Shown here piece after piece: positions 3,511 through 64,000 of a DNA stretch of 64,000 bases. The DNA is from Candidatus Poribacteria bacterium (GTDB taxonomy: Bacteria > Poribacteria > WGA-4E > PCPOR2b), in contig OZ244042.1 in assembly GCA_965215015.1 (NCBI GenBank), forward strand, positions 2,816,001 through 2,880,000, in the 5' to 3' direction. The notes below the pieces were generated by a model. That model saw nothing but the letters and a program-made list of their open reading frames with translations, had not been told where the DNA came from and did not search any database. The position numbers and the translations under genes were made by a program. Each line of letters starts with the position of its first letter. The first letter of the stretch is position 1.

Positions 3511-3755
3511 TAAACTATGAAAATGTACAAAAGCTTTACGCTGTATATTTTTAATATCTCGGATGTTATCACAAATGCAGGTGGGACGCTATGAAAAACT
3601 TCAAGGACGATATGGCAGTGGGTTGTCACTGGTTTATCATTTGTACAAAAAAATAGCTGTTGAATGTCTCATTGGGAAGAGGCATTCAACAGCTATATCT
3701 AAGTCGGGAAGATGCCCCCCCTACGAATGGCTTGGTAGGAGAGGCATCAGCAGGG
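3511..3755. repeat. 3' flank of giant-protein cassette 1, homologous to 25055-25307 and partly to 62098-62227
   Basis: taaactatgaaaatgtacaaaagctttacg...ggtttatcat..gtacaaaaaaa is near-identical at 3511 and 25055. Confidence 0.9.
3647..3695 (-). terminator. Rho-independent terminator of giant gene 1
   Basis: Stem tagctgttgaatgtctc / gaggcattcaacagcta with an A7 run (U-tract on the minus strand). Confidence 0.85.
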
Positions 3756-6700
3756 TTACTTCAGAATCAGCATCTTACGGGTTGCCGAGAATTCTCCTGC
3801 ACTGAGGCTGTAGAAGTAGATGCCACTGGCAACCTGTTCACCGAAACGGTTTCGCCCGTCCCAGTAGATGGCTTTGGCTCTCGACTCATAGACAGCCGCT
3901 GTCTGATGCCCCATATCGAGGGTTCGCACTACCTGACCGGTGCTATCGTAGATGGTCAAGACGACGTCCGCATCTGATGCTAACCGATACGGTATCCACG
4001 TTTCGGGGTTGAATGGATTGGGATAGTTGCGCAGCAGCTCCGTCTCTGACGGAATCTCATAGGCGATGAGGTCTGCCAACTCAATCCGAGTGGCTTTCAC
4101 ATCGTCAACCGTAACGATATGACGCACCGGCTGGACACCGATTAACGGACTGGGTGAATCTGCTGAAATCTCCAGGACATCTCCAACCTGTGCCGCATGA
4201 CCCACCTTCAGGTCAACAAAGGTCATGTTGTAACCTGTTGCTGTCTCAGTAGAGGTCACCCGGTTGAGTGCGGCTTTGGTGGACAGATTCTTCACCTTGA
4301 CCCGGAATCCGTCCTGCACCACTCCGGTGGTCTCATCAACGACCGAACCGTTGACATCGAGGACGGGGGTTTGACCGGCAACCTGATGGCTAACCAACGC
4401 GATAGGGGCAGCCGCCGCCGTGTCGTGACTCCAACCTGTTCCGATAAGTGCAGCGGTTGCATCGGTGGTGGCTGTGACCAGATAGGCAGCATCGCCCATG
4501 ACCGGGCCATCGCCTGAATCGCCTGCCGCTGCAACGGACTTGTATCCATCCGCCGTTGAAACAACGACACTCGCGACAACGCCGGTAGCAAATAGCGCGG
4601 CAATGTCGCTGACATTGTTCAGTCTCGCATCATTAACGGGTAGACCAATGAGGTTAGAACCGGCGGTGAGATTGATGGTTGATGCACCGTCGTCCCACGC
4701 ATACCCTGTGAAAGTCACCGTCGCTTCAGCACTCATCGAAACGAGGATACCCAGGTCTGCGGTAATCGGCACATCGTCGCTACGACTATTCCATAAGTCG
4801 TTGGCACTATCATAGACGATGAGCAGATTGGCGTCGCTGCCGAGCATCTCTCGGAGGTCTCCTACCGTGTTGAGCCCCTCAACTGCCAACGGGATGTGGA
4901 ACAGGCTCGTACCCGCCGGTATCTGCGAGGTATAGGACAGTTTGTTGTCCAACGTAACCATCGCCGTGCCGCTGCCGCTGTTGCCTGCGGCGTCGATAGC
5001 GGTTACAGTGATGGTTTTGGCCCCGTTGAGGGTTGTGTTAGCTTCACTGACAACGACTGAGGCACTGTAAGCACCATCGGCCCCCATCGTCAGACTGATC
5101 ATATCGGTTTGAGTGGTGTCTAACATGGAGACATCCGCCATCACGGAGGTGATGCTGCTCGCGTCCGAGACGGTCGCAGAGATTACCACCGGCTCACCGT
5201 TGGCCACGGTCTCAGGAGACGCCATCGCCATCACGGTCGGCATTGTGCTATCAAGTGTCAACGCATTGGACACCATCGCACCTTGACCATTCAGACTGAC
5301 AGACACATCATACATCCCATCGGCGTGCTGATCTGCGACGACGGTAAACGACCCGCTGTAGGCACCGCTCGATACTTCTGCCATCGACCGGTCGGTGACA
5401 ATGGAACCGACGGAGAACATCACGGTTCGACCGGCTGTCCCCATCGCGCTAACGGTGACGGTATCGCCCGCCATAGCCAGTGCCGGTTCAATCGTGACGC
5501 TGCCTTCGGTAATGGCTATCACAGAGGTGGTGACCGTGACCGGATGGCTCGCCATCGTCAGTCCCGGTGCTGTTGCGGTAATCGTTGCGATACCGGGGGT
5601 CGCATCTTGATAGTAGACCATCGCTGAGACCTCGCCGCCTGCAACGGTCACGGTGATGCTCTCGGTTCCCGTCCCTTCAGCGAGCTCAGAGAAGGTGCCC
5701 GCGGAGCTGGAGGTCAGGGTGACCGACACATCGGAGCCCATCGCCACCTCATGCCCATCGGCATCTCTCAACCCGACGGTGATACCTAACGGCATCGCGC
5801 CGTCGTCGGCAGAAACCGTGCCGGCACTGCTCAGTATGAGTTGGGTCGGCGTCGAGTCTTGGACGCGCACCGACACATTGGAATCTACCGGTCGACCATC
5901 AAAAAGCATGACGAAGTTAGAGACCTCACGGTTGGCAGGGGCGTCGGCATTGTGGTAGTTGAAGCTGATTTCATCACCCGCTTCGACCTCAAGCCCGCCC
6001 AATTTCACACGCGCAACCATGTCTCGGGCGACCGGTGCCAGTTTCTCGACACTCACCGTCGTCGCAACTCCCATATGCCGGTGCACCACGGTGTAGGTTC
6101 CCTTATTTTCAGGGTCCATCGCCGCACTGCTCGGTGCCGTCCAACCGGCGGGCACCTGCACCCGGAATTCCCGCGGCGCGCTGATGATGCCGACGGCGGT
6201 GTAGGTAAAGGTCAGGTTCACACCCGTCGCCCCGGCGTCTACAATCCTCGGCGCAACCTCACCGGAACCGGCACCCTGTCTCGCCTCGCCGACGTCGACG
6301 GTCAGCATGGTCTCATCGCCGGAGACATTTGCAAACGAATCGGCTGCATCGCCCCCGTGCACTCCAACCGCAAAGGCGACACCGGTGCCCACGTTGGGCT
6401 GCACATCACCTGTATAGACAAAGGTCACGGTCCCGTTGGCACTCAAGTTGACCCCTTCGACGATAGCCATTTGACCACTAAAGGTGGGTGGGATTGCTGG
6501 TGTAATTTCCACCGTATCCGCCGTCGGTGCAGACCAATCGGCGGGAACCTCGAGCCGCACCTTGCCACCTATCATTTGACCGGCTGCCGTGTAGGTGACG
6601 GTCAGCTCCCTGCCGGTATCACCGGTATGAAGTGTACCCTCCCCATCGGTCACAGCAATGACGGCTTTGCCTTTACCACTGGCTTGTGGGTTGACTGTGA

Positions 6701-9700
6701 CGGTCGGCTGCGTTTGAATCGGTGCGAGGTTACCGCCTTCACCGCCCCGAACGGCAAACCGAAACGCATCCACCCCGGTCGTGGCAGCAGCGACCGCACG
6801 CCCTGCCTCGGTCGCACCGTAGGTAATCGTTATATCATTGGCTTTGTCAAGCGAAAAGATAGGAACGGTCACAGAGAATTTATCATCGTCCGTGACGCTG
6901 CCAAGTCCCACGCCCTCCACCTCGGTATACCCCGGTAGACTGACCTCTTCGACCTGCGGTTGACTCCAGCTCGACGGAACGGTGAATCTCAGCATACCAT
7001 CTTCAATCGTCTGACTCGGTTTGTAGGTAAACACCAATTTCACATCGTCGGACGCCGCACGGACTGAGGGGGTATCCAATGTAACCGTTCCCGTCCCGTC
7101 CAATGCGCTGGTCACTTTGACTTGTAAGATACCGGGGGCATCTTTATAAATCCTCTGGGTCTTGTCCGGGTTCTTTATCTTCTCCCGGCCGGTGTGTTCC
7201 AAGTCGCTGGTAAGGACGTCGAAAACGCCGTCGCCATCCCCATCGGATCTAATCACGAACTGGGCGGTGCCAACATTGTCCTGAACCTCTGCACCGACAG
7301 CGGCACCGGTGCCACCTCCATAGATAAATCGGAAACTCCCTCCTTTGGCAAGCGTATCGATGGTCGCTATCGCATAGCGATCGTTTATATCATCAGGATC
7401 CAAGGAGACCCCCGCGCCGCGCGTCGTCACATAATTCCGCTGGGTCGGGTCATTCTGCATCGACCCCCAACCGTCTGGAATTTCAAGGCTTACAGCACCA
7501 CCGTCCATCGTGCCGGCTGCGGTGAACACGACCTCAATCGCCCGATTGCTACTACCCGCCTCAATCGTCCCCGGCGATAGCACGGCTGCCCCCATACCGT
7601 CTTCGACGTTGCTCAGCGTGACGGTGGCGGTCCCAGCGGTCCGGGTGCTGGCACCCGATGACGTTCTAAAGGTGCCGGACACTTGGACTGCACCGGCGGC
7701 ATGATGTAAGACGGCTCGACTATCATCGGCAGCACCATACGTAATCGTGACGGAGCCCCCGACATCGAGCTGACCGATTGCAACGGTGATGGTGCGCCCG
7801 GAGATGGTTATCTGATCCGCACCAATCGCCCCGGCATTCCTGCTCTTTTGTGCCTCGCCGGAGACGGATACCTCACCGGCGGTCGCGTCTGCCTTGGTCG
7901 GAGGACTGCCCAAAGTGGACGGGATGGTCAACCGCACCTCGCCGTCCCGTATGGGGGTCGAATCCGCTATAAACTTGAAATTGATAGTCTGTTCACTTCC
8001 GGCGGAGAAAGTGGCCTCGCCGTCGACTTCAAATCGAACCGCATCGCCTGAGGTCTTCACAACCGAGAGGATGGAACGATCATCAATGTCGGTCGCCTGG
8101 CCCTCCTCAAGTGGCTTACCATCAACGTTCACCTCCCAGAGATACTCGTCGGCTTCTGCGAGGATATTGACCCTGCGGATTCTGGCGGTCACGGTTTTCC
8201 CTTTTTCAAGGTCGAGACTTGACCACTCAATCATATTTCCATCAGCATTTACCACTAACCCTTCAGAACCCGAAACATAACCATAGTCCGTCGAGGTATC
8301 GGTTTGGAGTTTCTGATCATCATCGATAACAATGCCATCCGGCTCAATCGTTATAGTTGCACCCTCAAGATCGGTGTAGGCGGTATACGTCAGGGTGATA
8401 TCCCTCCGTTGAGAACCCGCCTCTACAGACGATGGCTCCAAGTCCAACTTACCAGAACCCGCCTTAGCAACCCACTCCCCACCACTGACGTCGGCCTCGG
8501 GTATAGGGGCGGTCGTAGAACCGACAGTGGTCTCCGCGGTGATATCGGCATCAGCACTGTCACCAATCCCCTCCTCACGAGTATACGAAACAATAATTTG
8601 CTGACCCTTATCAAGCGTCTCAATGGGGATAGTTAGCTTCGCGGGGGTCGGGGGGTTCGCGGGATCCGGGGGGTCCGGGGCCATACCGGCCGTAACAGTC
8701 CAAGGAGTAGTGGGGTCTGTGGAGTAGTCTAATTTTGCCCCGCCCCTGGTGTCCACATTAAAATTCTCAGCCACGGGGGTGTTCTGTGGCCCTAAATGTG
8801 CCATATCTAGGCCTGGGGGGCCAAATGATAAATCTAGGGAACTACCGTGCATCGGCCCAGGGGCTGTGAAGGTGAGAGTGAATTCGGTATTTTCCTCACC
8901 CGAAAATACCCGCCCCGGTTCAATTGTCAGCTTTCTTTTGAGAGGGTCACGGTCGGTACCCCCTCCTATAATATTGCCAACTCTGACAGCGGGCCGATCG
9001 AACAGACCAAGCACATCGTTCCGGGTACTCTCACTGCATAGGAATTCATAGATCTCATACGGAGCACCCCGGTTGTCCGTATGAGACAGACGAGAAGGAA
9101 TCGGAGCCGTTACATCACCCAGTAGGATGAGGAGTTCTCTATCACGCCGCTGGGGACCCCACGCCGAATCGAAGGCGACGGTTATCCGCTTGTCCGCTTC
9201 AAAGTCCACCCTATCCGTATCACTATCTGCTAAGACGGTGCCAGCTCCATCCGTGCTGTATAACCCTATTACCGTACTATCATCACCCACCTCCCTCTCT
9301 ATGATCGATATAAACTTGTTAGACACCTTCCAACCGGATGGAAACGCTATCCGAAAGCGACCACCAGACAGGTTATCAGTCGTTGGTGTGTAGGTAAATT
9401 TCAGAACGTTCCGAAGACTGCCAGCAGCAAGCGGAAGCGTGTTGTCAGTAGCAACAGTAATATCTGGAAGCTCATCATCAGCCGCTTCTCGGAAACCCCA
9501 ACCTACCTCTACCTCTGCGGCTCCTTGGACGCGCAGATAAAAGTTGGCGTCGGACTCTGCTCTAGGCTCGTCGGCGGGTACTCCGGGGTCGCCTAATCGT
9601 TGTCTTCTGTTGTGAATACTTGGATCATGAGTAACTCCATAGAGTGGAGCTGGTAACAGTATTCCATGTCTGTCAAAATTAGGGGCTCCGTGACTTCCAT

Positions 9701-10685
9701 ATATGGGGCTCCTGTCATTCGGTACATGTACAGCCACCGCGTAAGCACTCCGAACGTCACCTGTAAGTACGTGGTGCAGGGGTCCAGTCAGGGTGTTGTC
9801 CGTTGTCCAGTACGCCATCGCCGGATAACCCCCACCGCTATGGAACTTTGACGGGAGATTACCGTATCCCGTTATGGAGAGGAGGCCGTCAGTGTTGCTG
9901 TTGGGGTCTACTGTTACGATGGATGTTGTGTCCATCTCCCTCCAATTGTCGCTTGATGTGTCGCCTGGGGCATTGACCCTGTACGTAAATTTATAGGTCT
10001 CGGCGGTGGATTTGGTAGGGAAACGTATTTGGCAGTAGAGTAGATAGGTAATTCTCACTACAGGTTCGTCGTTTCTATTTCTGGCCGCTAGGGGCGGGTC
10101 CATCGCTGCTCTATCGGCATCGTCCAAATCGTACAAATCGCTAGCTGATTGTCTGATTGTTATCTGATTCCCGTCATAGTATACACCCTTATCACCCCAA
10201 TTTCCTCCGCCTATACCCTCATGAAAATTCATCTTATGAGTAAAGGGGCTCTCGGTAAACGACGAATGATAGGGTGGATTGCGGAAAACCATTCCATCAG
10301 ACCTGAAGGGCCCGGCTATTGAGGTGCCTCGTATAAAACGGCTGCCTGGTATAAGAGCACGCACCCGGACGTGTATGGAACCAGGTATCAATTCGATCCC
10401 CTCTGGGATCGTCACCCGGAACCCCTCCTTATTATCGGTGTTGTGCGATGTATAGTAAACTCTCAGATTGTAAGCATTGCCATGCCGAATGTCCTTCATC
10501 GCAATAAGATCACCGGATCTAACAGCGTGTTGACTCCCATACGGGAGGATTTGGAAACCTACCAAGTCTGAAAATACCACGCCCTGCGGCGCGGCCTCGT
10601 TAATAAACAACCCCACAAACAAAATCAAACTGAGGATAAAAAACACACTTAATTTCCGAAAATTTACATTTTTTGGTTTAACCAT
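3756..10685 (-). CDS. Giant (2309 aa) exported repeat protein with about 8 degenerate beta-sandwich modules and a C-terminal FlgD-Ig/T9SS-type-A-like sorting domain; paralog 1
   Basis: Sec-type signal peptide (MVKPKNVNFRKLSVFFILSLILFVGLFINEAAP), recurring AG.....l.FtYta....GG.vrl.iP.gW modules, DGDGDG Ca-binding-like loop, C-terminal NYPNPFNPETWIPY...YWDGRNRFGEQVASGIYFY. Confidence 0.85.
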   Translation of the reverse strand: MVKPKNVNFRKLSVFFILSLILFVGLFINEAAPQGVVFSDLVGFQILPYGSQHAVRSGDLIAMKDIRHGNAYNLRVYYTSHNTDNKEGFRVTIPEGIELIPGSIHVRVRALIPGSRFIRGTSIAGPFRSDGMVFRNPPYHSSFTESPFTHKMNFHEGIGGGNWGDKGVYYDGNQITIRQSASDLYDLDDADRAAMDPPLAARNRNDEPVVRITYLLYCQIRFPTKSTAETYKFTYRVNAPGDTSSDNWREMDTTSIVTVDPNSNTDGLLSITGYGNLPSKFHSGGGYPAMAYWTTDNTLTGPLHHVLTGDVRSAYAVAVHVPNDRSPIYGSHGAPNFDRHGILLPAPLYGVTHDPSIHNRRQRLGDPGVPADEPRAESDANFYLRVQGAAEVEVGWGFREAADDELPDITVATDNTLPLAAGSLRNVLKFTYTPTTDNLSGGRFRIAFPSGWKVSNKFISIIEREVGDDSTVIGLYSTDGAGTVLADSDTDRVDFEADKRITVAFDSAWGPQRRDRELLILLGDVTAPIPSRLSHTDNRGAPYEIYEFLCSESTRNDVLGLFDRPAVRVGNIIGGGTDRDPLKRKLTIEPGRVFSGEENTEFTLTFTAPGPMHGSSLDLSFGPPGLDMAHLGPQNTPVAENFNVDTRGGAKLDYSTDPTTPWTVTAGMAPDPPDPANPPTPAKLTIPIETLDKGQQIIVSYTREEGIGDSADADITAETTVGSTTAPIPEADVSGGEWVAKAGSGKLDLEPSSVEAGSQRRDITLTYTAYTDLEGATITIEPDGIVIDDDQKLQTDTSTDYGYVSGSEGLVVNADGNMIEWSSLDLEKGKTVTARIRRVNILAEADEYLWEVNVDGKPLEEGQATDIDDRSILSVVKTSGDAVRFEVDGEATFSAGSEQTINFKFIADSTPIRDGEVRLTIPSTLGSPPTKADATAGEVSVSGEAQKSRNAGAIGADQITISGRTITVAIGQLDVGGSVTITYGAADDSRAVLHHAAGAVQVSGTFRTSSGASTRTAGTATVTLSNVEDGMGAAVLSPGTIEAGSSNRAIEVVFTAAGTMDGGAVSLEIPDGWGSMQNDPTQRNYVTTRGAGVSLDPDDINDRYAIATIDTLAKGGSFRFIYGGGTGAAVGAEVQDNVGTAQFVIRSDGDGDGVFDVLTSDLEHTGREKIKNPDKTQRIYKDAPGILQVKVTSALDGTGTVTLDTPSVRAASDDVKLVFTYKPSQTIEDGMLRFTVPSSWSQPQVEEVSLPGYTEVEGVGLGSVTDDDKFSVTVPIFSLDKANDITITYGATEAGRAVAAATTGVDAFRFAVRGGEGGNLAPIQTQPTVTVNPQASGKGKAVIAVTDGEGTLHTGDTGRELTVTYTAAGQMIGGKVRLEVPADWSAPTADTVEITPAIPPTFSGQMAIVEGVNLSANGTVTFVYTGDVQPNVGTGVAFAVGVHGGDAADSFANVSGDETMLTVDVGEARQGAGSGEVAPRIVDAGATGVNLTFTYTAVGIISAPREFRVQVPAGWTAPSSAAMDPENKGTYTVVHRHMGVATTVSVEKLAPVARDMVARVKLGGLEVEAGDEISFNYHNADAPANREVSNFVMLFDGRPVDSNVSVRVQDSTPTQLILSSAGTVSADDGAMPLGITVGLRDADGHEVAMGSDVSVTLTSSSAGTFSELAEGTGTESITVTVAGGEVSAMVYYQDATPGIATITATAPGLTMASHPVTVTTSVIAITEGSVTIEPALAMAGDTVTVSAMGTAGRTVMFSVGSIVTDRSMAEVSSGAYSGSFTVVADQHADGMYDVSVSLNGQGAMVSNALTLDSTMPTVMAMASPETVANGEPVVISATVSDASSITSVMADVSMLDTTQTDMISLTMGADGAYSASVVVSEANTTLNGAKTITVTAIDAAGNSGSGTAMVTLDNKLSYTSQIPAGTSLFHIPLAVEGLNTVGDLREMLGSDANLLIVYDSANDLWNSRSDDVPITADLGILVSMSAEATVTFTGYAWDDGASTINLTAGSNLIGLPVNDARLNNVSDIAALFATGVVASVVVSTADGYKSVAAAGDSGDGPVMGDAAYLVTATTDATAALIGTGWSHDTAAAAPIALVSHQVAGQTPVLDVNGSVVDETTGVVQDGFRVKVKNLSTKAALNRVTSTETATGYNMTFVDLKVGHAAQVGDVLEISADSPSPLIGVQPVRHIVTVDDVKATRIELADLIAYEIPSETELLRNYPNPFNPETWIPYRLASDADVVLTIYDSTGQVVRTLDMGHQTAAVYESRAKAIYWDGRNRFGEQVASGIYFYSLSAGEFSATRKMLILK

Positions 10686-10937
10686 AATAAAATCCTTTCG
10701 TGGGAAAATTTAATTTCAGATTAACTCAATAACAATAGTACCCTTTCCACGTCTTACAACCCCTACTGCAAAAGATAACGTTCTGCCTATTGCTCCTCTT
10801 GTCATTGATTAGGTCAATTATGCACCAAAACGTTGTTGAAAACAGAAAAAGCTAATGGTAAAGTAAAGGGTTTTGAATACACAGTTCTATAATACAATCG
10901 ATCAAATTATACAATCGATCGAAAGATTTGTCGATCG
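10686..10937 (-). promoter_or_regulatory. Conserved leader and sigma70-type promoter of giant gene 1 (TCGACA-N17-TATAAT at 10934-10906)
   Basis: Near-identical to 32232-32465. -35/-10 spacing is 17 nt and homology stops 3 nt beyond the -35 box. Confidence 0.75.
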
Positions 10938-10957
10938 CTTATTAGAATCTTCCGCTC

Positions 10958-11120
10958 TAAAACCCCGTCTTTTAAGACGGGTATACAGATTGGCAAAGGG
11001 TATTCAGTCAAACAACGGTTGAAATTGTCTGATTGTTAGGCTCTTGAATCCATCAGGCTATCAAGTCTCTAACAATCGCAAAATGGGGTCAATCGCAAAA
11101 TGGGGTATACCTGTTTTGTC
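10958..11120 (+). mobile_element. Probable left-end remnant of an IS200/IS605-family element
   Basis: Subterminal hairpin aaccccgtcttttaagacggg followed by gattgttagg...ctaacaa and aaatggggtatac..gt.ttgtc; same order as the TnpB-derived element at 35.6-35.97 kb. Confidence 0.5.
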
Positions 11121-11294
11121 TTTGGTGAGGGGTTTTCAGTCCGCAGGGAGCGTAAAGCACCGAAGTTGCTGCCCCCTAATTTTTTTTTCAAAAAATCTCG
11201 TCTTTTTCCATGTCTTAGCTGTCTATATGGTTAAACGGATCGAAATCATTATCCAACCTTCTTATCCAAATTACTAGCCAGTTTAGAGGTAAGC

Positions 11295-11885
11295 ATGGAA
11301 AAATCAGATGAGGCTTTGATGCACCAACTCCAGACAGGTGATTTGCGTTCGTTTGATACATTGGTCAAACGGTGGGAGACGCCGCTATTGAACTACTGCT
11401 ACCGAATGGTCAATGACATCGCGTTGGCGGAAGATCTGCGGCAGGAAGTTTTTCTCCGTATCTATCGTTCTGCCAAGACGTTTCGTGCAACGGCAAAATT
11501 CTCCACATGGATGTACCGAATTGCGACAAATCTCTGCATCAATACACTTGCTAAACCAGGGCACCGAAAAGAGATACCAATGGGGCCCGATCTGAAGTTA
11601 GAGGGTGAAGGTTTCGACGACAGGCTCATCGATCCATCGGACACGCCTGATGTCGTTGTAATAAAGAAAGAGCTCGAAAGCCGAGTACGCTCGGCATTGG
11701 TGTGTTTACCACAAAATCTGCGAGTCGTAGTCATTATGCGCCATTACCACGACATGAAATTTCGAGAGATTGCCCAAGTTTTGGAGTGTCCTATTAGTAC
11801 GGTTAAGTCACGGATGGCAGCTGGAATGACACGCCTCAGTCAAATGTTGTCGAAGCAAGAAAAATGTCTCAGCGTTCGCCGCTGA
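11295..11885 (+). CDS. ECF RNA polymerase sigma-70 factor
   Basis: Region 2 (AEDLRQEVFLRIYR, FSTWMYRIATNLC) and region 4 (FREIAQVLECPISTVKSR). Confidence 0.92.
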   Translation: MEKSDEALMHQLQTGDLRSFDTLVKRWETPLLNYCYRMVNDIALAEDLRQEVFLRIYRSAKTFRATAKFSTWMYRIATNLCINTLAKPGHRKEIPMGPDLKLEGEGFDDRLIDPSDTPDVVVIKKELESRVRSALVCLPQNLRVVVIMRHYHDMKFREIAQVLECPISTVKSRMAAGMTRLSQMLSKQEKCLSVRR

Positions 11886-11910
11886 TTCACCTACGAAGGA
11901 GGGATTTGCA

Positions 11911-12618
11911 TTGGATTGCAGATTGTTTAGAGAACAGATTGTGGTTGAGAGCTACAATGAATTGGACGCAGGGGCGAAAAAATCGCTGGAAGCCCACTTG
12001 CAAATTTGTCGGGCGTGTGAGCAATTTCAAGCCGCTCTAAACGAGACACGACAAGCCCTCGACCAATGGCAAGAGGTAGATTGTCCAATCGATATTGAGG
12101 CATTGCATGGGGCGATACAGCCTGAATCTTCGTCGTGGTGGTCCCAATTACCCGCATGGCGATGGTTCTCCTGGGGAATGGCGACCTGCTTGACTTTGGT
12201 CTTCGGTCTTTCTGCGCTCGCATGGGTCGGCGTTGACCTTAAGTGGGAGGACCGTGGTTTGACGCTTAGGATTGGAGCAGAGGCGGCCCCGGAGATTACA
12301 GAGCAGGAACTGGTACGATTGCTGCAGGCGGAACGTCACGCCACCCAAGTGGAGATTGTAAAACAGCTTCAAGGAGCGTTGGATGAATTCAGCGAACAAC
12401 TCCAAGTCCATCTGGATGAACGGCAGAAACAGGCGAATACACAACTGGCGTTAATCTACCAGGAATTGCAATCACAACGGGTACAGGATTTGGAACTCAT
12501 CCGTCAAGAGCTGCAGCACCTCGCCGGCGCGACTGAAGCCGAGTTTCTTGAGACGCAACGGGCCTTTGAGTTCATCCTTGCTTCGCATGTGTCTGGGATA
12601 CAAAAGAATCTGAAATGA
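11911..12618 (+). CDS. Zinc-finger (HxxxCxxC) transmembrane anti-sigma factor with a coiled-coil extracytoplasmic part
   Basis: MDC...HLQICRAC ZAS motif, single TM helix, follows the ECF sigma gene; TTG start after GGAGG. Confidence 0.85.
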   Translation: MDCRLFREQIVVESYNELDAGAKKSLEAHLQICRACEQFQAALNETRQALDQWQEVDCPIDIEALHGAIQPESSSWWSQLPAWRWFSWGMATCLTLVFGLSALAWVGVDLKWEDRGLTLRIGAEAAPEITEQELVRLLQAERHATQVEIVKQLQGALDEFSEQLQVHLDERQKQANTQLALIYQELQSQRVQDLELIRQELQHLAGATEAEFLETQRAFEFILASHVSGIQKNLK

Positions 12619-12698
12619 CATCGTATCGATTATCAACTGTGTGTTGCGTAAAACGTGAACACAAAACCGAAGAAGAGATATTAAAGGAGAAGACAATT

Positions 12699-13670
12699 AT
12701 GAGATGCTATATGAACCTTATCATAGCTATGCTTGGTGTCGGTTTGGTTGCCAGCACTGTATTTGCACAAGATGAAATTAACTATACCGAGATGGTCGAA
12801 GATCTTAAGGTAATGTGTCGAATCATTGATGAAACAATGGACGAGACATTTGAGAAGGATTATCTCAAGGGGGGATTTTTCCGTAGGGGCTGCCAACACC
12901 TATATCTCACAGGCTATGGCCCTGTGTTCCTGCTTGATGTACAATTTCCTGTTTCCGAGAAAGAGATGAGGGTTGTTAAGACCGAAAAGGAAACGAACCT
13001 GTGGGAAAAATATGAGCGAGAGGTTCGGCATCAAGGTCAACCGGAAGAGGCGGTATGGGTAGTCGGTAAAAACGAATCGTATAGTAGGGAGAAGGTTGAT
13101 AAACTCAAGGAGCAGCTCGCTTATCTCGCCGGTGAGTATGGCTCCCGTATCGGTCAATTGGGGTTTGATGATACAATCTCATTTGTGGTTTTTGGGTATT
13201 CTGATTACGCCGTTGACCTTGATGTAGGTTTGGATTTTGAAGTGCTTAATGAACACGTCAAAGTGCTTAATGAACACGTCAAAGCGAAGCGGGAGAGCCT
13301 TAAAAAGCTAAAAGAGACTGCGGAAAAATTGGGAGAAGAACTACAGGGAGAAGAACTGCAGGAGAAGATCGCAGCGCAGGAGGGCCGAGAGGCTGACAAA
13401 AAGGTTATCATCCAGCGGGATGAAACAATAATCATCGAGGAAGAGAAAGATGAAGAAATGGAAGATTCACAACCAAAAAAGGGCAAACAGCTTCGTGTGC
13501 TTATTCGTCCGACTCCACCAACCCCTCCGACTCCACCAAGCTTTCCCCACAGGTTCCATGGTAAGCCAGCAACGACGTTGATTCTGACCTTCAAACGGAG
13601 TCAGCTTGAGGGCAAAAAGGGAACGGATTGGGAAACTTTATTAGCAGCGGCAGAGGTTGTGGAGTATTGA
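12699..13670 (+). CDS. Exported hypothetical protein in the ECF operon
   Basis: RBS AAGGAG, signal peptide ending VFA-Q, 21-bp tandem duplication (VLNEHVK x2), PTPPTPPTPP stretch. Confidence 0.7.
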   Translation: MRCYMNLIIAMLGVGLVASTVFAQDEINYTEMVEDLKVMCRIIDETMDETFEKDYLKGGFFRRGCQHLYLTGYGPVFLLDVQFPVSEKEMRVVKTEKETNLWEKYEREVRHQGQPEEAVWVVGKNESYSREKVDKLKEQLAYLAGEYGSRIGQLGFDDTISFVVFGYSDYAVDLDVGLDFEVLNEHVKVLNEHVKAKRESLKKLKETAEKLGEELQGEELQEKIAAQEGREADKKVIIQRDETIIIEEEKDEEMEDSQPKKGKQLRVLIRPTPPTPPTPPSFPHRFHGKPATTLILTFKRSQLEGKKGTDWETLLAAAEVVEY

Positions 13671-13675
13671 ACCAT

Positions 13676-14245
13676 TCAACCAAAGACGGTAAATCCAACA
13701 TACATGAGCACCGAAATGAGATTTATAACGACCAAGGCACCCTTCATAAGCCGGGATGGTAGGCGGGGAAAGAGATAGACCGATGCCCCAATTGTGACCA
13801 ATATTTCGATAGCGGAAACAATCCTGCCGTGATGTCTAGGGTCCCAGTAGGAGATTGGGCTATAAAAGCGGAATTGGAGGAGGGGGAAGAAGTGCCTATG
13901 CCCGTCATCGTGGTGGAGGAAAAAATCGCCGGCAGCGTGTAACAGCAGGCTCAGGGAGCAAACAATGACAGCGTTGGATTGACGCCAGTAGCCAATTCCA
14001 AGGAGGAGGAGAAACAACGGGATGGAGTTGAAGATATCAAAGAGGTTTTGCCACTCCGGGAGGAAATACCGCTCCCCCCAGATGAGGCTTTGCGGGTGCT
14101 TAAGGATAAATGCCTCAACCAGAAAAAAGAAAAACATCGGTACGTCCGGCAATACAGCACCGATGAGCGCGTAACGGTGGAGGTGTGGCACTGCTTTCCG
14201 ACTCAGGAGTGCGACGTTAATAATGGCGTGGGTTTGGGTATTCAT
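13676..14245 (-). CDS. Membrane-bound metal-dependent hydrolase-like protein
   Basis: MNTQTH, GAVLPD, LLHAAGDFFLHHDDGHRHFFP, SPISYWDPRH; several TM helices. Confidence 0.65.
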   Translation of the reverse strand: MNTQTHAIINVALLSRKAVPHLHRYALIGAVLPDVPMFFFFLVEAFILKHPQSLIWGERYFLPEWQNLFDIFNSIPLFLLLLGIGYWRQSNAVIVCSLSLLLHAAGDFFLHHDDGHRHFFPLLQFRFYSPISYWDPRHHGRIVSAIEILVTIGASVYLFPRLPSRLMKGALVVINLISVLMYVGFTVFG

Positions 14246-14290
14246 CGGTTCATTAGTTCGCTAGCTCATTCATGAATCAGCACATCAATG

Positions 14291-14585
14291 AATTAACTGA
14301 GGGGCACTCATAATAATTGTCTAAATCACGGATTAAACAGATGACTCAGATAACACGGATTGAGAAACGATTGAACGTTCGGAAAAATTTATTAGCGCGT
14401 GTGAATAGCAGTTGGCGAAGATTCGCGTGGACTCATGGTTGAAAAATGCCTCTGCAAATCTCCGCCAATTGACACGAATGAAAAAAGTGTTGGGTCTCGG
14501 CTTTAGCGGAGGACGCGGATAGGGACAAACGCGCAATGAATTGCGCTACTACGAACAGGGTTATGTATTTGAGAAGTGCTCATTA
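14291..14585. repeat. MITE/REP-like element homologous to 44346-44470
   Basis: Shared core ggctttagcggaggac(g/a)cggatagggacaaacgcgcaatgaattgcgctactacgaacagggt, bounded by tgagg(a/g)g..ctca motifs. Confidence 0.75.
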
Positions 14586-14680
14586 TTCAATGCGTGTCAT
14601 CGCTCGCTTCGGCAAGATCGCTTTGGCCAATTGTAGGAGCTTGGTTCCCAAGGCCAACGGGTTGGGAGACCCAACCCCAT

Positions 14681-15196
14681 CCGTTGAGGGCTATCGAGAG
14701 GTATACACATTAGGTTCTATTTATGAGGACTCCTCAATTAACTGAGGGGTGCTTATAAGTCCAATGACCGAAATAGTAGTCAGATATGTTGTGTTTCTGA
14801 AAAGTTGTCAGCCTTGGAAAGTAAATGATGCGCGCTTCTCGGCAGACTTTCCTTGTCCTTTCGGTGTCAACTTGAGTCCCCTAATCCTTCAATCTGGGAA
14901 ATCCTGATTCAGACAAGAATAATGCACCCCCCCTCAACTAACTTAGGCTCCCCACCCGTTGAGGGCTATCGAGAGGTATACACATTAGGTTCTATTTATG
15001 AGGACTCCTCAATTAACTGAGGGGTGCTCATAAGTCCAATGACCGAAATAGTAATCAGATATGTTGTGTTTCTGAGAAGTTGTCAGCCTTGGAAAGTAAA
15101 TGATGCACGTTTCTCGGCGGCCCTTTCTTGTCCCTTCGGTGTCAACTTGAGTCCCCTAATCCTTCAATCTGGGAAATCCTGATTCAGACAAGAATA
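14681..15196. repeat. Two direct copies of a 241-bp non-coding unit (14681-14921 and 14956-15196; period 275 bp)
   Basis: ccgttgagggctatcgagaggtatacac...aatcctgattcagacaagaata repeated with only scattered substitutions. Confidence 0.95.
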
Positions 15197-16216
15197 TGGG
15201 CTCGTGTACCTGATTATTCCCTCCTCCAGCATGGTCAGCAGCGCAGAGTCGTCTACATCAAGCGGCAGGGTAATCTTCGCACGACGGCGGCTTGACTCGT
15301 AGGTCGAAAAGATGAGCTCTGTGGTCTGGATTGCCTTTCGGCCGCTGAGCTCTGGCTCGCGCCCCGTTTTGACGCAATCGATAAGGTCGAGCACGGAGAG
15401 GACGGTATCTCCGCCGGGCAGAACAATACCGTCAAGGTTTGGTGCTTCCCAATCAGCTCTCCCGTGTCGGAGGACGCGCACCGGTGGCTTATCTCGCCCG
15501 CCGACTTCAATGATGCCGTTTGTTCCGATGATACGATTCTGTACTCCAGCCAGCGCAGCCGCGCCTGTTGTGAGTAGACCTTCTACCCCGTTTTTATAGC
15601 GGATCCATGAGACGCCGCTCGTCTCTACCGGCACACCAAAAACGAGATGTTCTTCAACCACATCAATTTGACCCATCACCCATTCTGCCGGTTCGTCGTT
15701 GTTATAGAAGAAGAACATGTCGAACCAGTGCGTTCCCCAGTCAATCATATTGGGACAGGCTCCTTCAAAGCGGTAGACTTGACCGATTGTGCCATCGTTT
15801 GCCAACTCCTTCGCTTTGACAAAGCTCGCACCGAAGCGACGCTGGTGGCAGAAGCTAATCATCACATCGTTGTCCACACACGCTTGATAGAGTGCTTTGG
15901 CGTCGCCCCATGTCGGTGCCATCGGTTTCTCGGCGTGGATGGCTTTAATCCCACTATTCGCTGCTGCGATAACCATCTCTTTGTGCAGCCCAATCCACGT
16001 GCAGACGCTGACAAAGTCGAGCGATTCTTTATCTAGCATTTCGCGATAATCCTCATAAGTTTTCGCAACTCCGAACTGTTCCGCGAAATTCCCCCGCGCT
16101 TCTTCGACCGGATCCGCACATGCGATGATCTCTACCTCCGGCGATGCTTGATAACCTTCCGCATGACCCCGGCCGCGTCCACCACAACCGATGATACCTG
16201 CTTTGAATAATGCCAT
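15164..16216 (-). CDS. Gfo/Idh/MocA-family oxidoreductase
   Basis: GIIGCGGRG Rossmann motif, AEKPM, HQRRF, DWGTHWFD; the last codons come from the adjacent repeat. Confidence 0.9.
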   Translation of the reverse strand: MALFKAGIIGCGGRGRGHAEGYQASPEVEIIACADPVEEARGNFAEQFGVAKTYEDYREMLDKESLDFVSVCTWIGLHKEMVIAAANSGIKAIHAEKPMAPTWGDAKALYQACVDNDVMISFCHQRRFGASFVKAKELANDGTIGQVYRFEGACPNMIDWGTHWFDMFFFYNNDEPAEWVMGQIDVVEEHLVFGVPVETSGVSWIRYKNGVEGLLTTGAAALAGVQNRIIGTNGIIEVGGRDKPPVRVLRHGRADWEAPNLDGIVLPGGDTVLSVLDLIDCVKTGREPELSGRKAIQTTELIFSTYESSRRRAKITLPLDVDDSALLTMLEEGIIRYTSPYSCLNQDFPD

Positions 16217-16784
16217 AAAGTTCTCCTTCTCAGAATTAAAAATTGTATAAACTCAATAGGTCATACCCTGGCAGGAATACCTCCAACAAACAGCATTAAC
16301 ACCGTAATCTTACGTTTTACATAGGCTTCCGCGCCGTTATGATACCCGAGCCATCCGGCAACGTATCCCGCTTAAAGTCCACAAAAAATTTGAGAGTGTT
16401 GATTCGTTTTTACTTATTGTAGCATCAAGGCATCTATGTGTCAACGTAGGGGAATTGCATCCGTTATAGAAATTACGCAGCGGCGATCACAGGTTAGGCA
16501 CCCCCGATGAATCGAGGATAAGTTGCGGCGCAGCGGCAATCCTGATCCATTGGGGCTCTGTAGCGACGAGAGGGTACGCCCTCCCCCTGCCTACGTTCTT
16601 TCCCCACCGTTTGCGGGGGTAGGGGGGATTGGGCCACGATTGTAGTGTGACACTATTGTGTCGAGGTATGAATCTCGACCGACGAATTCTGTTGACTCTA
16701 ACGGAAATCCCATGGATATTCAACTAGCAACTTACCTTAAAATAGCCCAAGTTGCTAGGCATTGAAAGTTTATGCCCGCGATAA

Positions 16785-17426
16785 ATGAATAAATCAATTT
16801 CACATTTCATGTCTCACCTTTGTAGTCCTCAACTGAAGCATTGGATTAACCTAATTTTGATACTTTGTCTGATGGTAGCCTGCGGCTGCTCAGACAACCC
16901 AGAAATTGATTCCGCAACTGTCCAAAAAGAACACGACGAGGGCTGGGCAGCCTATCATAAAGGAGATTTTTCCACCGCACTGCTGCATTTTGAGCGCGTG
17001 ATTGAGTTGGACACAACCTTTGCCGACGCACACAACGGCTTAGGCTGGACCCATCTCAGTATTTCACATCAGCCCGCAACACGCCCTGAGACTCTCGCCA
17101 AGGCACAAAAGGCATTTGAGGCCGCCATCCGCTCGGACCCTTCCAATGCGGATGCGTGGGTCGGGTTAGCCAATACGCTCTTTCTCCGCCGTGAGGGTGC
17201 TGCGGATTTTCAAACCGCGCTCCGTGCTATCGACAACGCCTTGCAGGCGGATTCCCGCACCCTCTTTCGACATGACTATGAGTCGGTGGCAGCGCTCTAC
17301 GCGCTCCGTGCTGCCTGCTACTACTATGTTGGTCAAACGGAACTTGCTCTATCGATTCTTGAGGGGGCACTTCACCTGGAGCCCTCAAACCCGACTGTGT
17401 TATCACTGCAACAATTATTAAAATAA
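16785..17426 (+). CDS. TPR-repeat lipoprotein
   Basis: Lipobox-like VACGC; TPR motifs (ADAHNGLGWTHL, ADAWVGLANTL). Confidence 0.75.
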   Translation: MNKSISHFMSHLCSPQLKHWINLILILCLMVACGCSDNPEIDSATVQKEHDEGWAAYHKGDFSTALLHFERVIELDTTFADAHNGLGWTHLSISHQPATRPETLAKAQKAFEAAIRSDPSNADAWVGLANTLFLRREGAADFQTALRAIDNALQADSRTLFRHDYESVAALYALRAACYYYVGQTELALSILEGALHLEPSNPTVLSLQQLLK

Positions 17427-17468
17427 AGTCAATTCTTTCGTTTACCCCTTTGGTGAGGCTTCGTCCGA

Positions 17469-18911: not shown

Positions 18912-18960
18912 AAAAAACACCTTCTTTTTTATAGATTGGATTGGACATTTTTGTAGAATT

Positions 18961-20898: not shown

Positions 20899-21101
20899 TT
20901 AAGCACTCCATTATCCTCAAGCCAATTTGAGTTGGTGTTTCACTACTATACTTATGGTACTCCCCATTACTGAATGAGTGTAGCACCAAGCACATCTATT
21001 GTCAAGAGGGGTTGAAGGATTAAGCCAATCTATGGTACTATATCTTACACTTTGACCTGAAATTGACCTGAGAGATTGCGCTCAGAAAGTGAGGCAAAAA
21101 A

Positions 21102-43619: not shown

Positions 43620-43630
43620 AAGGAAGAGCT

Positions 43631-43894: not shown

Positions 43895-43922
43895 CACTTT
43901 TAGATTAGCAAACGCAATTCAG

Positions 43923-44313: not shown

Positions 44314-44345
44314 AGGACCGTCCCTGCCTCTCTTGTTACCCCCCA

Positions 44346-45545: not shown

Positions 45546-45570
45546 ACCTTGATTTTGAAAGGAAAACAGC

Positions 45571-48579: not shown

Positions 48580-48644
48580 GAGGATCTACCACATTTGATG
48601 TCCATATTCGCCCCTGGTGCGATTCTTTTGGTGAATATACCCAT

Positions 48645-49330
48645 CTACCCCTTTTTATACCGATACCGAGCCACAGCCCCTTTACTCGCTTCTTTTACCC
48701 GTGCATAATGAGCGGGCATCTGTGGAGATTTCCATCTGCCCGCTTGTTGCATCTCCACAACAGACGCCCCCGCTTGAGATAAAGACACCGCAGCCCCCAC
48801 ACGAAGCGAATGCCCCGAGATAAAGCCATCAATGCCAGCGACAGAAGCCCATTGTTTGATAGCGTAGCGAGCTCCATTGACTGTGAGCCTCGTGGATTGG
48901 ATATGATCACCCCGCACGATACGACGAAATAAAGTCCCTGTGGTTATGTTTGCTTCAGTGCAGTAGTGCCGTATCATCTGCCTTGTCCGATCCCCGATAT
49001 ACAACGCCACACCCTCACCTTGTTGATTCGTCTTACTCGACTGGACGATTAAGGCATTTTCTTGGCTATCCTCAAGGTTGACCGCCACCGCTTCACTGAT
49101 ACGAAGTAAGCAATCACTCATGAGACGGATAAGTGCAGAATCCCGATAGCCCTTGATGCTTTGTTCAGATTCAGCGAACCTGCACACGAAATCGACATCC
49201 GCCCATGACAGACCGTCGACTTGACCGTTGCCCCTGTTCTGAGTATCACGCTTGATAGTGAGCAGCCGCTTATCGGTGGTTGTCCACTTCTGTAGTGAAC
49301 GCATGATGTGCTTGAAATACCACTTGACCA
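48645..49330 (-). pseudogene. Cre-like tyrosine recombinase, 5'-truncated; inverted paralog of 42015-42491
   Basis: RDSALIRLMSDCLLRISE, SKT, GHSLRVG, GRWKS, AHY; 133/158 aa identical to the left copy by manual count. Confidence 0.8.
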
Positions 49331-49332
49331 AG

Positions 49333-61619: not shown

Positions 61620-61717
61620 GGAGGTCAAGAAAAGGGTTAGGGTCGATTGTAACTTGGGTTCAATAATACAAAATTGCTATAAATGCTTGACCCCGCGTGA
61701 GATAGTCTATACCCTCT

Positions 61718-62071
61718 ATGGCAATGATAGATTCATCCCTCCCAAAAGTAGAGCAGCAGCGGGTCGAAGGTGTCACCGTTAAATCCCTCCTCATCGCCTC
61801 TCTTCTCATCCCAATTAACTGCTACTGGGTCATTGAGATGGAGGTTATCCGGTACTCTGGTCATCCGGTCACCATCTCCCTCTTCTTCAATGTCGTTTTC
61901 AGTCTTTTTGTAGTTATCGGTGTCAACCCGTTTCTTAAGTGGTTTTCGCCCCGTTCTACACTGAATCAGGGAGAACTTATCATCGTCTACCTGATGCTGT
62001 CTATTGCGTCTGGCATCACGGGGCACGACATGCTCGAAATCCTCGTGCCGATGTTTTTGACATGGCTATGA
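61718..62071 (+). pseudogene. 5' fragment of a DUF6785-like membrane protein (paralog of 18961-20898)
   Basis: LLIPINCYWVIEME...GELIIVYLMLSIAS matches the first ~110 aa of the 645-aa paralog, then stops next to the 3' flank of giant gene 3. Confidence 0.75.
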
Positions 62072-62120
62072 TTTCAAAAGAAACTTCATAATTACAAACA
62101 ACGGGGTTTATCATTGGTAC

Positions 62121-62164
62121 AAAAAAAACTGCTAAATGCCTCGTTGCGAGGAGGCATTTAGCAG
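62121..62164 (-). terminator. Rho-independent terminator of giant gene 3
   Basis: Stem ctgctaaatgcctc / gaggcatttagcag plus A8. Confidence 0.85.
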
Positions 62165-62227
62165 CTATATCTAAGTCAGGCAGATGCCCCCCCCTACGAA
62201 TGACTTGGTAGGAGAGGCCTCACCAGG

Positions 62228-64000
62228 TTATTTCAGAATCAGCATCTTACGGGTTGCCGAGAATTCTCCTGCACTGAGGCTGTAGAAGTAGATGCCACTG
62301 GCAACCTGTTCACCGAAACGGTTTCGCCCGTCCCAGTAGATGGCTTTGGCTCTCGACTCATAGACCGCCGCGGTCTGATGCCCCATATCAAGGGTTCGCA
62401 CCACCTGACCCGCGGTATCATAAATCGTCAAGACCACATCCGCATCCGATGCCAACCGATACGGTATCCAGGTCTCTGGGTTGAACGGATTCGGATAGTT
62501 CCGAAGTAGCTCCGTCTCTGACGGAATCTCATAGGCGATGAGGTCTGCCAACTCAATCCGAGTGGCTTTCACATCGTCAACCGTAACGATATGCCGCACG
62601 GGTTGGACACCGATTAACGGACTTGGGGAATCTGCCGAAATCTCGAGGACATCGCCCACCTGTGCCGCATGACCGACCTTCAGGTCAACAAAGGTCATGT
62701 TGTAACCTGTTGCTGTCTCAGCAGAGGTCACCCGGTTGAGTGCGGCTTTGGTGGACAGATTCTTCACCTTGACCCGGAATCCGTCCTGCACGACTCCGGT
62801 GGTCTCATCAACGACCGAACCGTTGACATCAAGGACGGGGGTTTGACCGGCAACCTGATGGGTAACCAAGCCGCTAGGGGCAGCCCCCGTTGTGTCCTGA
62901 CTCCAACCTGTTCCGAGAAGGATAGCCGTTGCATCGGTGGTCGCTGTGACCAGATAGGCAGCATCGCCCATGACCGGTTCATCGTTTACATCCTCGACCA
63001 GTCCATCATTTACATCCGCTGCCGCTGCAACGGACTTGTATCCCTCCGCGGTTAAAACAACGACACTGACGACAACGCCGCGCGCAAAGAGCCCTGCAAT
63101 GTCGCTGACATTGTTCAGTCTCGCATCGTTAACGGGTAGGCCGATGAAGTTAGAACCGGCGGTGAGATTAAGGGTTGATGCGCCGTCGTCCCAGGCATAC
63201 CCGGTGAAAGTCACCGTCGCTTCAGCACTCATTGAAAGGAGGATACCCAGGTCTGCGGTAATCGGTACATCGTCGCTGCGACTATTCCATAAATCGGTCG
63301 CCCTATCATAGACAATGAGCAGATTGGCGTTGCTGCCAAGCATCTCGCGGAGGTCGCCTACCGTGTCGAGCCCCTCAACTGCCAACGGGACGTGGAACAG
63401 ACTGATCCCTGCCGGTATCTGTGAGGTATAGGACAGTTTGTTATCCAACGTAACCATCGCCGTGCCGCTGCCGCTGTTGCCTGCGGCGTCGATCGCGGTT
63501 ATGGTGATGGTTTTGGCCCCGTTGAGGGCTGTGTTAGCTTCACTGACAACGACTGAGGCACTATACGAACCATCGGCCCCCATCGTCAGAGCGACCGCAT
63601 CGGTTTGGGTGGTATCTAACATGGAGACATCCGCCATCACGGAGGTGATGCTGCTCGCGTCGGAGACGGTCGCAGAGATTTCCACCGACTCACCGTCGGC
63701 AACGGTCTCAGGAGACGCCATCGCCATCACGGTCGGCATCGTGCTGTCAAGTGTCAACGCATTGGACACCATCGCACTTTGACCATTCAGACTGACAGAC
63801 ACATCATACATACCATCGGGGTGCTGAACGACATCGGCGTGCGGATCAGCGACGACGGTAAACGACCCGCTGTAGGCACCGCTCGATACTTCTGCCATCG
63901 ACCGGTCGGTGACAATCGAACCGACGGAGAACATCACGGTTCGGCCTGCCGTGCCCATCGCACTGACGGTGACGGTATCACCCGCCCTCGCGAGTGCCGG
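62228..64000 (-). CDS. Giant exported repeat protein paralog 3 (partial; runs off the window end)
   Basis: Frame is open to 64000 (..ALARAGDTVTVSAMGTAGR..) and closely matches the C-terminal ~580 aa of paralogs 1 and 2. Confidence 0.85.
   Translation of the reverse strand, partial: PALARAGDTVTVSAMGTAGRTVMFSVGSIVTDRSMAEVSSGAYSGSFTVVADPHADVVQHPDGMYDVSVSLNGQSAMVSNALTLDSTMPTVMAMASPETVADGESVEISATVSDASSITSVMADVSMLDTTQTDAVALTMGADGSYSASVVVSEANTALNGAKTITITAIDAAGNSGSGTAMVTLDNKLSYTSQIPAGISLFHVPLAVEGLDTVGDLREMLGSNANLLIVYDRATDLWNSRSDDVPITADLGILLSMSAEATVTFTGYAWDDGASTLNLTAGSNFIGLPVNDARLNNVSDIAGLFARGVVVSVVVLTAEGYKSVAAAADVNDGLVEDVNDEPVMGDAAYLVTATTDATAILLGTGWSQDTTGAAPSGLVTHQVAGQTPVLDVNGSVVDETTGVVQDGFRVKVKNLSTKAALNRVTSAETATGYNMTFVDLKVGHAAQVGDVLEISADSPSPLIGVQPVRHIVTVDDVKATRIELADLIAYEIPSETELLRNYPNPFNPETWIPYRLASDADVVLTIYDTAGQVVRTLDMGHQTAAVYESRAKAIYWDGRNRFGEQVASGIYFYSLSAGEFSATRKMLILK

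Follow-up and report, generated by a model that had tools for sequence, protein, structure and literature searches.

The stretch of DNA analysed here (the window, 64,000 nucleotides in length) is part of the genome of a Candidatus Poribacteria bacterium, hereafter G000, assembled as a single contig of 5.94 Mb, of which it represents positions 2,816,001-2,880,000. It contains three paralogous genes, w1, w2 and w3, whose open reading frames (ORFs) start or end at 3756, 25308 and 62228 and lie, as the initial annotation stated, all on the same strand, here the minus strand. They encode giant proteins with tandem immunoglobulin (Ig)-like domains, and homologs of their stalk are annotated as 'T9SS type A sorting domain-containing protein [Candidatus Poribacteria bacterium]' (T9SS, type IX secretion system). 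Together with comparisons to the genome of a sister species, G003, our results indicate that these genes belong to a dispersed family of exported surface Ig-repeat proteins under diversifying selection at the distal tip, a reading to which we assign a probability of about 0.7. The features of the three units are as follows.

3756-10685, minus strand: w1 ORF, 2309 amino acids (aa), with signal peptide, variable tip, tandem Ig-like stalk and T9SS type-A sorting domain
10587-10685, minus strand: predicted signal peptide of w1 (aa 1-33), with a hydrophobic core and an AAP cleavage-like motif, read from the sequence
9486-10586, minus strand: variable tip of w1 (aa 34-400), modelled as a beta-sandwich with long variable loops
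3765-4025, minus strand: C-terminal sorting domain of w1 (TIGR04183, 30.6 bits, and PF13860)
10906-10934, minus strand: sigma-70-like promoter of w1, with a 17-nt spacer and an overlapping inverted repeat; a second -10 box stems from a short duplication
10686-10905, minus strand: 5' leader of w1, ~200 nt, mosaic among copies
10936-11050, minus strand: hairpin repeat of ~110 bp resembling a miniature inverted-repeat transposable element (MITE), abutting the w1 promoter, with 24 BLAST hits in the genome including itself
3644-3695, minus strand: terminator-like hairpin and T-run of w1, -23.4 kcal/mol
25308-32231, minus strand: w2 ORF, 2307 aa
31137-32132, minus strand: variable tip of w2, 332 aa, ~40% identical to the w1 tip
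32434-32462, minus strand: promoter of w2
25232-25281, minus strand: terminator-like hairpin of w2, -25.8 kcal/mol
62228-64000, minus strand: 3' part of w3, whose full gene (2311 aa) starts beyond the window, at genome position 2885163
62116-62167, minus strand: terminator-like hairpin of w3

The promoter-to-terminator unit has been copied repeatedly, and more often than the three times initially noted, because the whole genome holds nine intact copies (2,292-2,331 aa; seven are encoded on the minus strand, the other two on the plus strand). They are dispersed, and all nine ORFs, of ~7 kb, are in frame without any internal stop; copies outside the window include those designated c2599, c3629, c3905 and c5429. 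G000 additionally contains a divergent, tipless and frameshifted paralog at 321,983-327,545 (0.32 Mb), with the same locus being intact in G003. The latter genome contains ~10 copies, 10 of them bearing a tip; two of its copies are arranged in tandem, separated by the leader alone, and the downstream one has two tip domains of the short type in succession. In DNA comparisons, w1 and w2 align over 3511-8645/25055-30236 (88.8% identity), 3757-9512/25309-31163 (87.3%) and 10553-10924/32099-32468 (91.7%), and the tip stretch between the aligned blocks is hardly alignable as DNA.

All nine G000 products start with a basic N-region, a hydrophobic core and an AAP motif, as judged by eye, followed by an N-terminal tip of ~330-370 aa. 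The FlgD-Ig/T9SS-type-A-like sorting domain that had been proposed at the C-terminus was supported by matches to FlgD_ig (PF13860) and to the type-A sorting domain model TIGR04183, with scores of 30.6 and 31.0 bits for the latter versus a cut-off of 23; PF18962 scored at or just under its cut-off. A 601-residue segment of the stalk was modelled with a pLDDT of 89 as tandem beta-sandwiches, whose best Foldseek matches (lowest E value 4e-15) are Ig domains of adhesins and pilins with 8-15% identity and, likewise, the S-layer proteins 7ptp and 4aq1; the likeness to S-layer proteins is one of predicted fold. The tip plus the first stalk domain was modelled as beta-sandwiches with long loops (pLDDT 72). 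The protein also has BslA Pfam matches. A short strand motif is common to the tip and the stalk repeats, which suggests that the tip might be a decorated copy of a stalk repeat.

Regarding export, G000 encodes a protein of the PorV/PorQ family (95.4 bits versus a cut-off of 90), and a frame of 2,161 aa at 1,372,690-1,376,415 shows four collinear weak matches to SprA. These two genes hint at a minimal T9SS-like exporter in Poribacteria. They bear on the point left open in the available text of PMC3909097, which reports TIGR04183 domains in Poribacteria and no Por secretion genes.

Variation among copies is concentrated at the tip. Identity to w1 is 95-98% at the C-terminus, 84-95% in the proximal stalk, 66-74% in the distal stalk and 34-75% in the tip; tips within G000 share 34-41% identity, save for one pair at 75%, a level matched by long tips from different genomes (33-44%). 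In the tip model, identity is lower in loops and helices (0.32) than in strands (0.50). After removal of codons near gaps, the tips of the five closest G000 pairs showed dN/dS values of 1.63-3.32 (NG86), 1.19-2.76 (LWL85) and 1.70-4.24 (YN00), at a dS of 0.05-0.14, and dN exceeded dS in shares of 0.99, 1.00, 1.00, 0.76 and 1.00 of the bootstrap replicates; the corresponding stalks yielded 0.15-0.27. Differences at codon positions 1, 2 and 3 numbered 136, 125 and 62 in the tip versus 83, 75 and 351 in the stalk. The proposal that the copies had diversified at their distal tip is therefore borne out by dN/dS values above one in close pairs and by changes mainly at codon positions 1 and 2.

There is also evidence of recombination among copies. 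The nearest neighbour of a given copy shifts along the gene, and 11 of the 28 pairs among the eight unique copies have identical tracts in excess of the length expected from site permutation (p<0.01, uncorrected); for six pairs, p is at its minimum of 0.001. Four-gamete incompatibility is 0.35 for sites up to 30 nt apart and climbs to 0.56-0.61 at larger distances, and two copies separated by 2.6 Mb show no difference as far as residue 2108, after which they differ at 32 sites. In a quick version of the stalk tree, each genome forms one clade; in the tip tree, built without the three short-tip G003 copies and all tipless rows, G000 and G003 are interleaved, with two label changes forced by well-supported branches. 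G003 copy j3520 and G000 copy c2599 have a common downstream flank and different tip types. Judging by these sequence patterns, the distal tip is under positive selection and the stalks are homogenised by conversion.

Copies also carry their own expression signals. A promoter-like site lies ~220-240 nt upstream of each of the nine G000 copies, that of w1 having 11 of 12 consensus matches and ranking top of 13 sites, and the stop codon is followed in all nine by a hairpin and T-run of -23 to -30 kcal/mol, although these hairpins were missing from the output of a second, simple scanner. Three G000 copies have tandem promoter duplications, and there are small in-frame indels at the start. An inverted repeat spans the -35 box and spacer at 10913-10937 and 32441-32465, and could be an operator for a shared regulator. 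An Rfam scan of the window gave no match, and the leader as a structured RNA was unsupported, with compensatory changes in none of the 35 predicted pairs. As initially noted, the ORF list and a domain search revealed no transposase gene inside the units of the window; likewise, we saw no invertible promoter or recombinase gene in or next to them. The MITE-like repeat beside the w1 promoter may resemble an IS200/IS605 end (IS, insertion sequence).

The limits of the units were evaluated by comparison between copies and with cassette-free relatives, and involve the following features.

3240-3511, minus strand: interior fragment of a xylose-isomerase-like gene (PF01261), broken at 3511; the 5' end of that gene lies upstream of the 2.60 Mb copy
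3511-3638, minus strand: captured flank that duplicates the upstream DNA of the oxidoreductase gene beside w2
25055-25214, minus strand: native upstream region of that GFO oxidoreductase gene (23978-25051)
61676-62053, plus strand: 5' piece of a DUF6785 gene split by w3, the remainder lying upstream of w3

From the extent common to w1 and w2, the initial annotation had deduced a self-contained cassette with common ends. The promoter-through-terminator unit stands, but its boundaries vary by pair, the common 5' flank reaching from ~-240 to ~-1260 and the common 3' flank from +93 to +253. The supposed common 3' end at 3511/25055 proved to be captured flanking DNA, with part of the w2 'tail' (to +94 to +164) being native DNA upstream of the oxidoreductase gene in four of ten cassette-free relatives; with this, the fixed-end cassette had to be abandoned. 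On the other side, relatives match the upstream DNA of the gene neighbouring w2 up to -245 to -249 in eight of nine loci, so the inserted w2 unit starts at its promoter. The flanks are not all unrelated either, in that several of them share IS or MITE remnants.

Empty sites were found in three of three outgroups each for three of the nine copies, w3 and those at 1.27 and 5.63 Mb, and mark the copies as true insertions and not old, static syntenic paralogs. We did not find empty sites for w1 and w2, whose left and right flanks are far apart in relatives. Scars vary from a 9-bp duplication to losses of ~215 or ~360 bp and to blunt insertion: w3 entered the DUF6785 gene, whole in three of three outgroups, with the loss of ~360 bp, and one G003 copy is an exact insertion of 7.2 kb with neither duplication nor loss. 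The absence of a target duplication thus holds for the copies in the window and fails for the 5.63 Mb copy, an IS-gene-IS arrangement with direct IS repeats, both internally deleted, and one 9-bp target duplication at the outer ends, corresponding to a single target in the relative G007. This composite-transposon structure occurs in that copy alone out of nine, and in none of the three in the window. No att-like end common to the copies was seen.

Three pairs of flanks that are adjacent in outgroups are now split between copies (six flanks): w1-downstream/c2599-upstream, c3905-downstream/c5429-upstream and c3629-downstream/c3905-upstream, the last being 7.6-11 kb apart in outgroups. The first pair represents the two ends of one PF01261 gene, which is whole in the relative G002, and is ~215 bp short in G000, with its ends ~210 kb apart. 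No partner was identified for the upstream flanks of w1, w2 and c3629 or for the downstream flanks of w2, c2599 and c5429. Such split flanks point to insertion followed by recombination between copies. G000 also contains nine full-length copies of a 1.34-kb IS with a DDE transposase (PF01609; e.g., 2,232,624-2,233,961), to which IS4 models are closest, below their cut-offs; some of these copies have swapped their target duplications, marking past rearrangements, and therefore repeat-mediated rearrangement is active in G000. In BLAST comparisons, an IS piece is found no more than 600 bp from the start of three of the nine copies, versus 0.8% of random positions, and six of nine are near an IS when short IS-end motifs read by eye are counted. 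The alignments thus depict a unit that is mobile in effect, and not a fixed-end cassette.

The C-terminal 914 aa retrieve some match in all 41 genomes examined; G000 (nine) and G003 (~10) stand out from the others, in which a genome has few matches that are both long and high-scoring. In loci from six relatives (G002, G008, G009, G012, G015 and G022), and in one G003 locus, the gene is followed downstream by that of a second giant sorting-domain protein. The tip is missing from all nine genes fetched outside G000 and G003, and among 151 genomes from the class a tip profile matched two, namely G000 and G003, which are also the two that show the expansion. Among 120 listed stalk homologs, the profile matched 15, of which 14 are from G000 or G003 and the fifteenth, from another assembly, combines a stalk 90-98% identical with a new tip allele. 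A search of 5.8 billion proteins returned two G000 proteins as tip relatives and no others, a search of 1.84 billion representatives returned none, the ESM Atlas had nothing at ≥0.9, and scans of metagenome and viral contigs were negative, although blank searches do not prove absence. From these comparisons, the ancestral gene is shown to be a single one, at a conserved locus, for a predicted tipless protein of ~2,050 aa.

This ancestral slot is filled in G003 and other relatives. In G000 (2,299,125-2,299,226), it retains a consensus promoter, a 32-codon signal-peptide ORF fused to the last codons of the gene, and a terminator, and the mature protein is gone. Downstream are a 2,472-aa Ig/sorting-domain partner, the PorV/PorQ-family gene and a LysM gene. 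The junction has no recombinase site and hardly any microhomology; it was not found in metagenome contigs, which is uninformative.

In G003, seven of the ten tip-bearing copies contain 3-19 units of a 10-nt repeat directly after the start codon, and the sole in-frame one among the seven has 10 units (for two copies, whose start motif was unmatched in the scripted count, the frame was judged from the fetched locus). All 77 triple-decamer matches in the genus fall at these seven starts, and 19 other genomes, including G000, have none. Such an arrangement is classic for slipped-strand phase variation, and may permit switching.

Other features of the window include two phage-integrase-family genes at 42013-49331, 82% identical and facing each other around several ORFs of unidentified product, which probably form a small integrative element; a tandem duplication with a 275-bp period at 14675-15196; a repeat resembling repetitive extragenic palindromes (REP-like) at 14498-14582 and 44385-44469; and six PhyH-family dioxygenase genes at 41082-61619, four of them within 55.9-61.6 kb. 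GC skew was uninformative.

Contigs from four runs of four studies, any one of which may be the source sample, were compared with positions 1000-20900 of the window. One contig bridges the 3511 junction with zero differences, and run X7 showed a summed depth of ~21 in the flanks, 160-310 in the stalk and ~46 in the tip bin, depth not being a copy number. Together with the w1 tip pieces discussed below, contigs and depth argue against an artefact and against rapid turnover of the tip.

Our results outline a scheme in which a tipless single gene, located upstream of a second giant sorting-domain protein (itself followed in G000 by the PorV/PorQ-family gene), gained an extra N-terminal beta-sandwich tip in the G000/G003 lineage. 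The whole transcription unit spread to 9-10 sites per genome through opportunistic events with variable ends, either IS-bounded, blunt and exact, or into genes with small deletions, and recombination among copies homogenises stalks within each genome, swaps tips between loci and shuffles chromosomal flanks. New tip alleles gain amino-acid changes faster than silent ones. In G003, the 10-nt repeat is expected to gate seven of the ten copies, and G000 has its nine copies in frame and has lost the mature-protein part of the ancestral gene. We infer that the protein is exported by Sec and then passes to the surface by a T9SS-like route, where it would form a rod of ~15-20 Ig domains with the tip outermost, and that selection is exerted by an agent recognising the tip. 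Phage is the agent we somewhat favour; phagocytic or innate receptors of the sponge are a tentative second choice, and diversified binding to ligands of the host matrix seems unlikely.

Several observations weigh against this scheme. The five G000 pairs with dN/dS above one were picked as the closest, and three share members, so they are not independent; the mean for the tip over all 28 pairs is 0.89, through saturation; G003 tip pairs gave 0.62-1.82, one being clearly below one; and pairwise dN/dS may be distorted by recombination. Confidence in the tip model is moderate, and its structural matches mostly cover the first stalk domain (Z ~10), so that they say little on the tip fold; the SprA-like match falls below its cut-off (71.5 versus 200 bits). 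In addition, no switching device was found in G000, whose nine ORFs are intact and have similar promoters, and w1 tip pieces identical to the window occur in three runs from three studies, indicating no fast turnover. For these last two reasons, variation in G000 is slow rather than rapid. The idea of an antigenic-variation or evasion repertoire in the initial annotation gains from the repeat layout in G003 and, for G000, has to be restated as slow, evolutionary variation.

A bolder reading, rather unlikely, is a full antigenic-variation system of giant T9SS-type Ig rods in which each cell would display one or a few tips. G003 would vary by decamer slippage, and G000 either by refilling of the slot or by promoter changes through IS/MITE fusion and inter-copy recombination that also rearranges the chromosome, driven by a specific tip-binding phage or sponge receptor. 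On this reading, the tip would be the first poribacterial candidate for a phage receptor or an antigen of host recognition.

Neutral or dosage-driven amplification in an IS-rich genome, providing more of an S-layer-like protein while the tip drifts, agrees with the nine full-length IS copies, some with swapped duplications, with the coincidence of cassette edges with IS/MITE remnants, and with an ancestral two-gene layout that recalls TfsA/TfsB of Tannerella, as presented in the available part of PMC10202324. Nevertheless, it is improbable: drift predicts a dN/dS of ~1, and not of 2-4 with low dS; all nine ~7-kb ORFs are intact; expansion and tip occur together in just two of 151 genomes; and most G003 copies are out of frame, the opposite of a dosage effect.

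We give little credence to expression-site antigenic variation, in which the emptied slot would be the expression site, and the nine copies, with a -35 box one base off consensus, a weakly expressed archive able to refill it. In its favour, the slot, which is occupied in G003 and other relatives, has kept a -35 box that fits the consensus, the terminator and a signal peptide like that of tip-bearing copies, with the mature protein cleanly gone, and orthologous loci bear different tips (j3520 versus c2599). However, each dispersed copy is a complete gene under its own promoter, with a leader and a terminator of its own, and not a promoterless donor, the slot junction shows neither a recombinase site nor appreciable microhomology, and G003 has a filled slot and yet uses a per-gene repeat layout. 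The family differs from silent-cassette variation of the vls, pilE/pilS or msp2 type in having no promoterless or truncated donors, since none of the nine copies is shortened and each has a promoter-like site.

It is very unlikely that a dedicated recombinase acting in trans moves the unit as a precise, self-contained cassette whose ends are fixed. The 5' edge near the -35 box in several copies and the exact insertion in G003 would suit it, but flank lengths differ in every pair, the common 3' end is captured native DNA, scars differ and no att-like end common to the copies was seen; by the same features of variable shared flanks and differing scars, the unit was discarded as a site-specific mobile gene cassette.

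Variation of the tip by a diversity-generating retroelement (DGR) or another targeted mutator is highly implausible. Compatible with it are the surplus of changes at the first two codon positions and the involvement of adenine in 59% of tip differences versus 39% in the stalk. Nonetheless, all six substitution types are common in the tip, 41% of its differences do not involve adenine, the genome contains no non-coding copy of the tip that could act as template, and no reverse transcriptase match was obtained in the 98%-complete G000, with the control being positive in three of 14 genomes. We thus rejected a DGR, for which neither reverse transcriptase, template repeat nor adenine-specific changes were found, and read the tip variation as selection because all substitution types occur, positions 1 and 2 are in excess and there is no reverse transcriptase. 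Lastly, although long repeats are prone to misassembly, an assembly artefact is refuted for the presence of the copies, because they differ widely and have distinct tips, a second genome shows the same architecture, contigs from other runs hold the w1 tip and its flanks or bridge 3511, and stalk depth is several times that of the flanks.

Most accounts of variable repertoires with conversion, selection and repeat switching concern pathogens exposed to antibodies and gut Bacteroides exposed to phages. Sponges have no adaptive immunity, and the same pattern in a sponge symbiont that is widespread and uncultured suggests an intense and so far unnoticed arms race at the cell surface, and provides the molecule to examine. 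The origin of the system is also visible, from a tipless single-copy ancestor in most relatives, through gain of the tip and expansion, to a predicted switch in one of two sister genomes. We found no description of this family of giant Ig rods in a literature search, subscription papers and supplements being mostly outside it.

Comparison with known systems reveals partial likenesses. Ig-repeat adhesins and pilins (PrgB 8beg, SdrD, antigen I/II, RrgB) and YweA/BslA resemble the models in their tandem beta-sandwich stalk with an N-terminal head; identity is, however, 7-15%, and the TM-score across the models reaches 0.3 at most, so that a fold is shared and a function is not thereby indicated. 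The 5.63 Mb copy, between direct IS remnants and with a 9-bp outer duplication, is like an IS composite transposon or an IS26-type translocatable unit, but both IS are internally deleted and the likeness extends to one of nine copies. Likewise, the two S-layer proteins TfsA and TfsB of Tannerella forsythia, secreted by T9SS (PMC10202324), recall the ancestral poribacterial locus, with two giant sorting-domain genes in a row and the PorV/PorQ-family gene after them in G000. This likeness between pairs of large T9SS-type cargo proteins concerns gene layout, and dispersed, diversified copies have no counterpart in the available part of that source.

Parallels are also found in two families of dispersed loci. 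Opa proteins of Neisseria are small outer-membrane beta-barrels with a 5-nt repeat, unlike the ~2,300-aa Ig rods with a T9SS-type tail described here, to which they show no homology. As described in the available text of PMC4534519, they are encoded by ~11 complete copies that are not silent donors, with hypervariable exposed regions reshuffled by recombination and ON/OFF switching by a tandem repeat in the signal-peptide region. In common with them, all nine G000 copies are dispersed and complete with their signals and have a hypervariable recombining region, predicted to be exposed, and the 10-nt tract in seven of ten G003 copies parallels the Opa repeat in the signal-peptide region; G000 differs in lacking any such tract (no match). 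In Bacteroides thetaiotaomicron, according to the accessible part of 10.1101/521070, BT1927 and seven homologs form eight dispersed, phase-variable S-layer loci of a symbiont, each switched singly, one of them giving phage resistance. They encode lipoproteins, are transcribed from promoters that can invert, and have a tyrosine recombinase next to them; the units of the window have no recombinase gene inside or beside them, and no invertible promoter was seen. By analogy, the poribacterial family would work like the opa genes of Neisseria or the S-layer loci of B. thetaiotaomicron, while being a member of neither.

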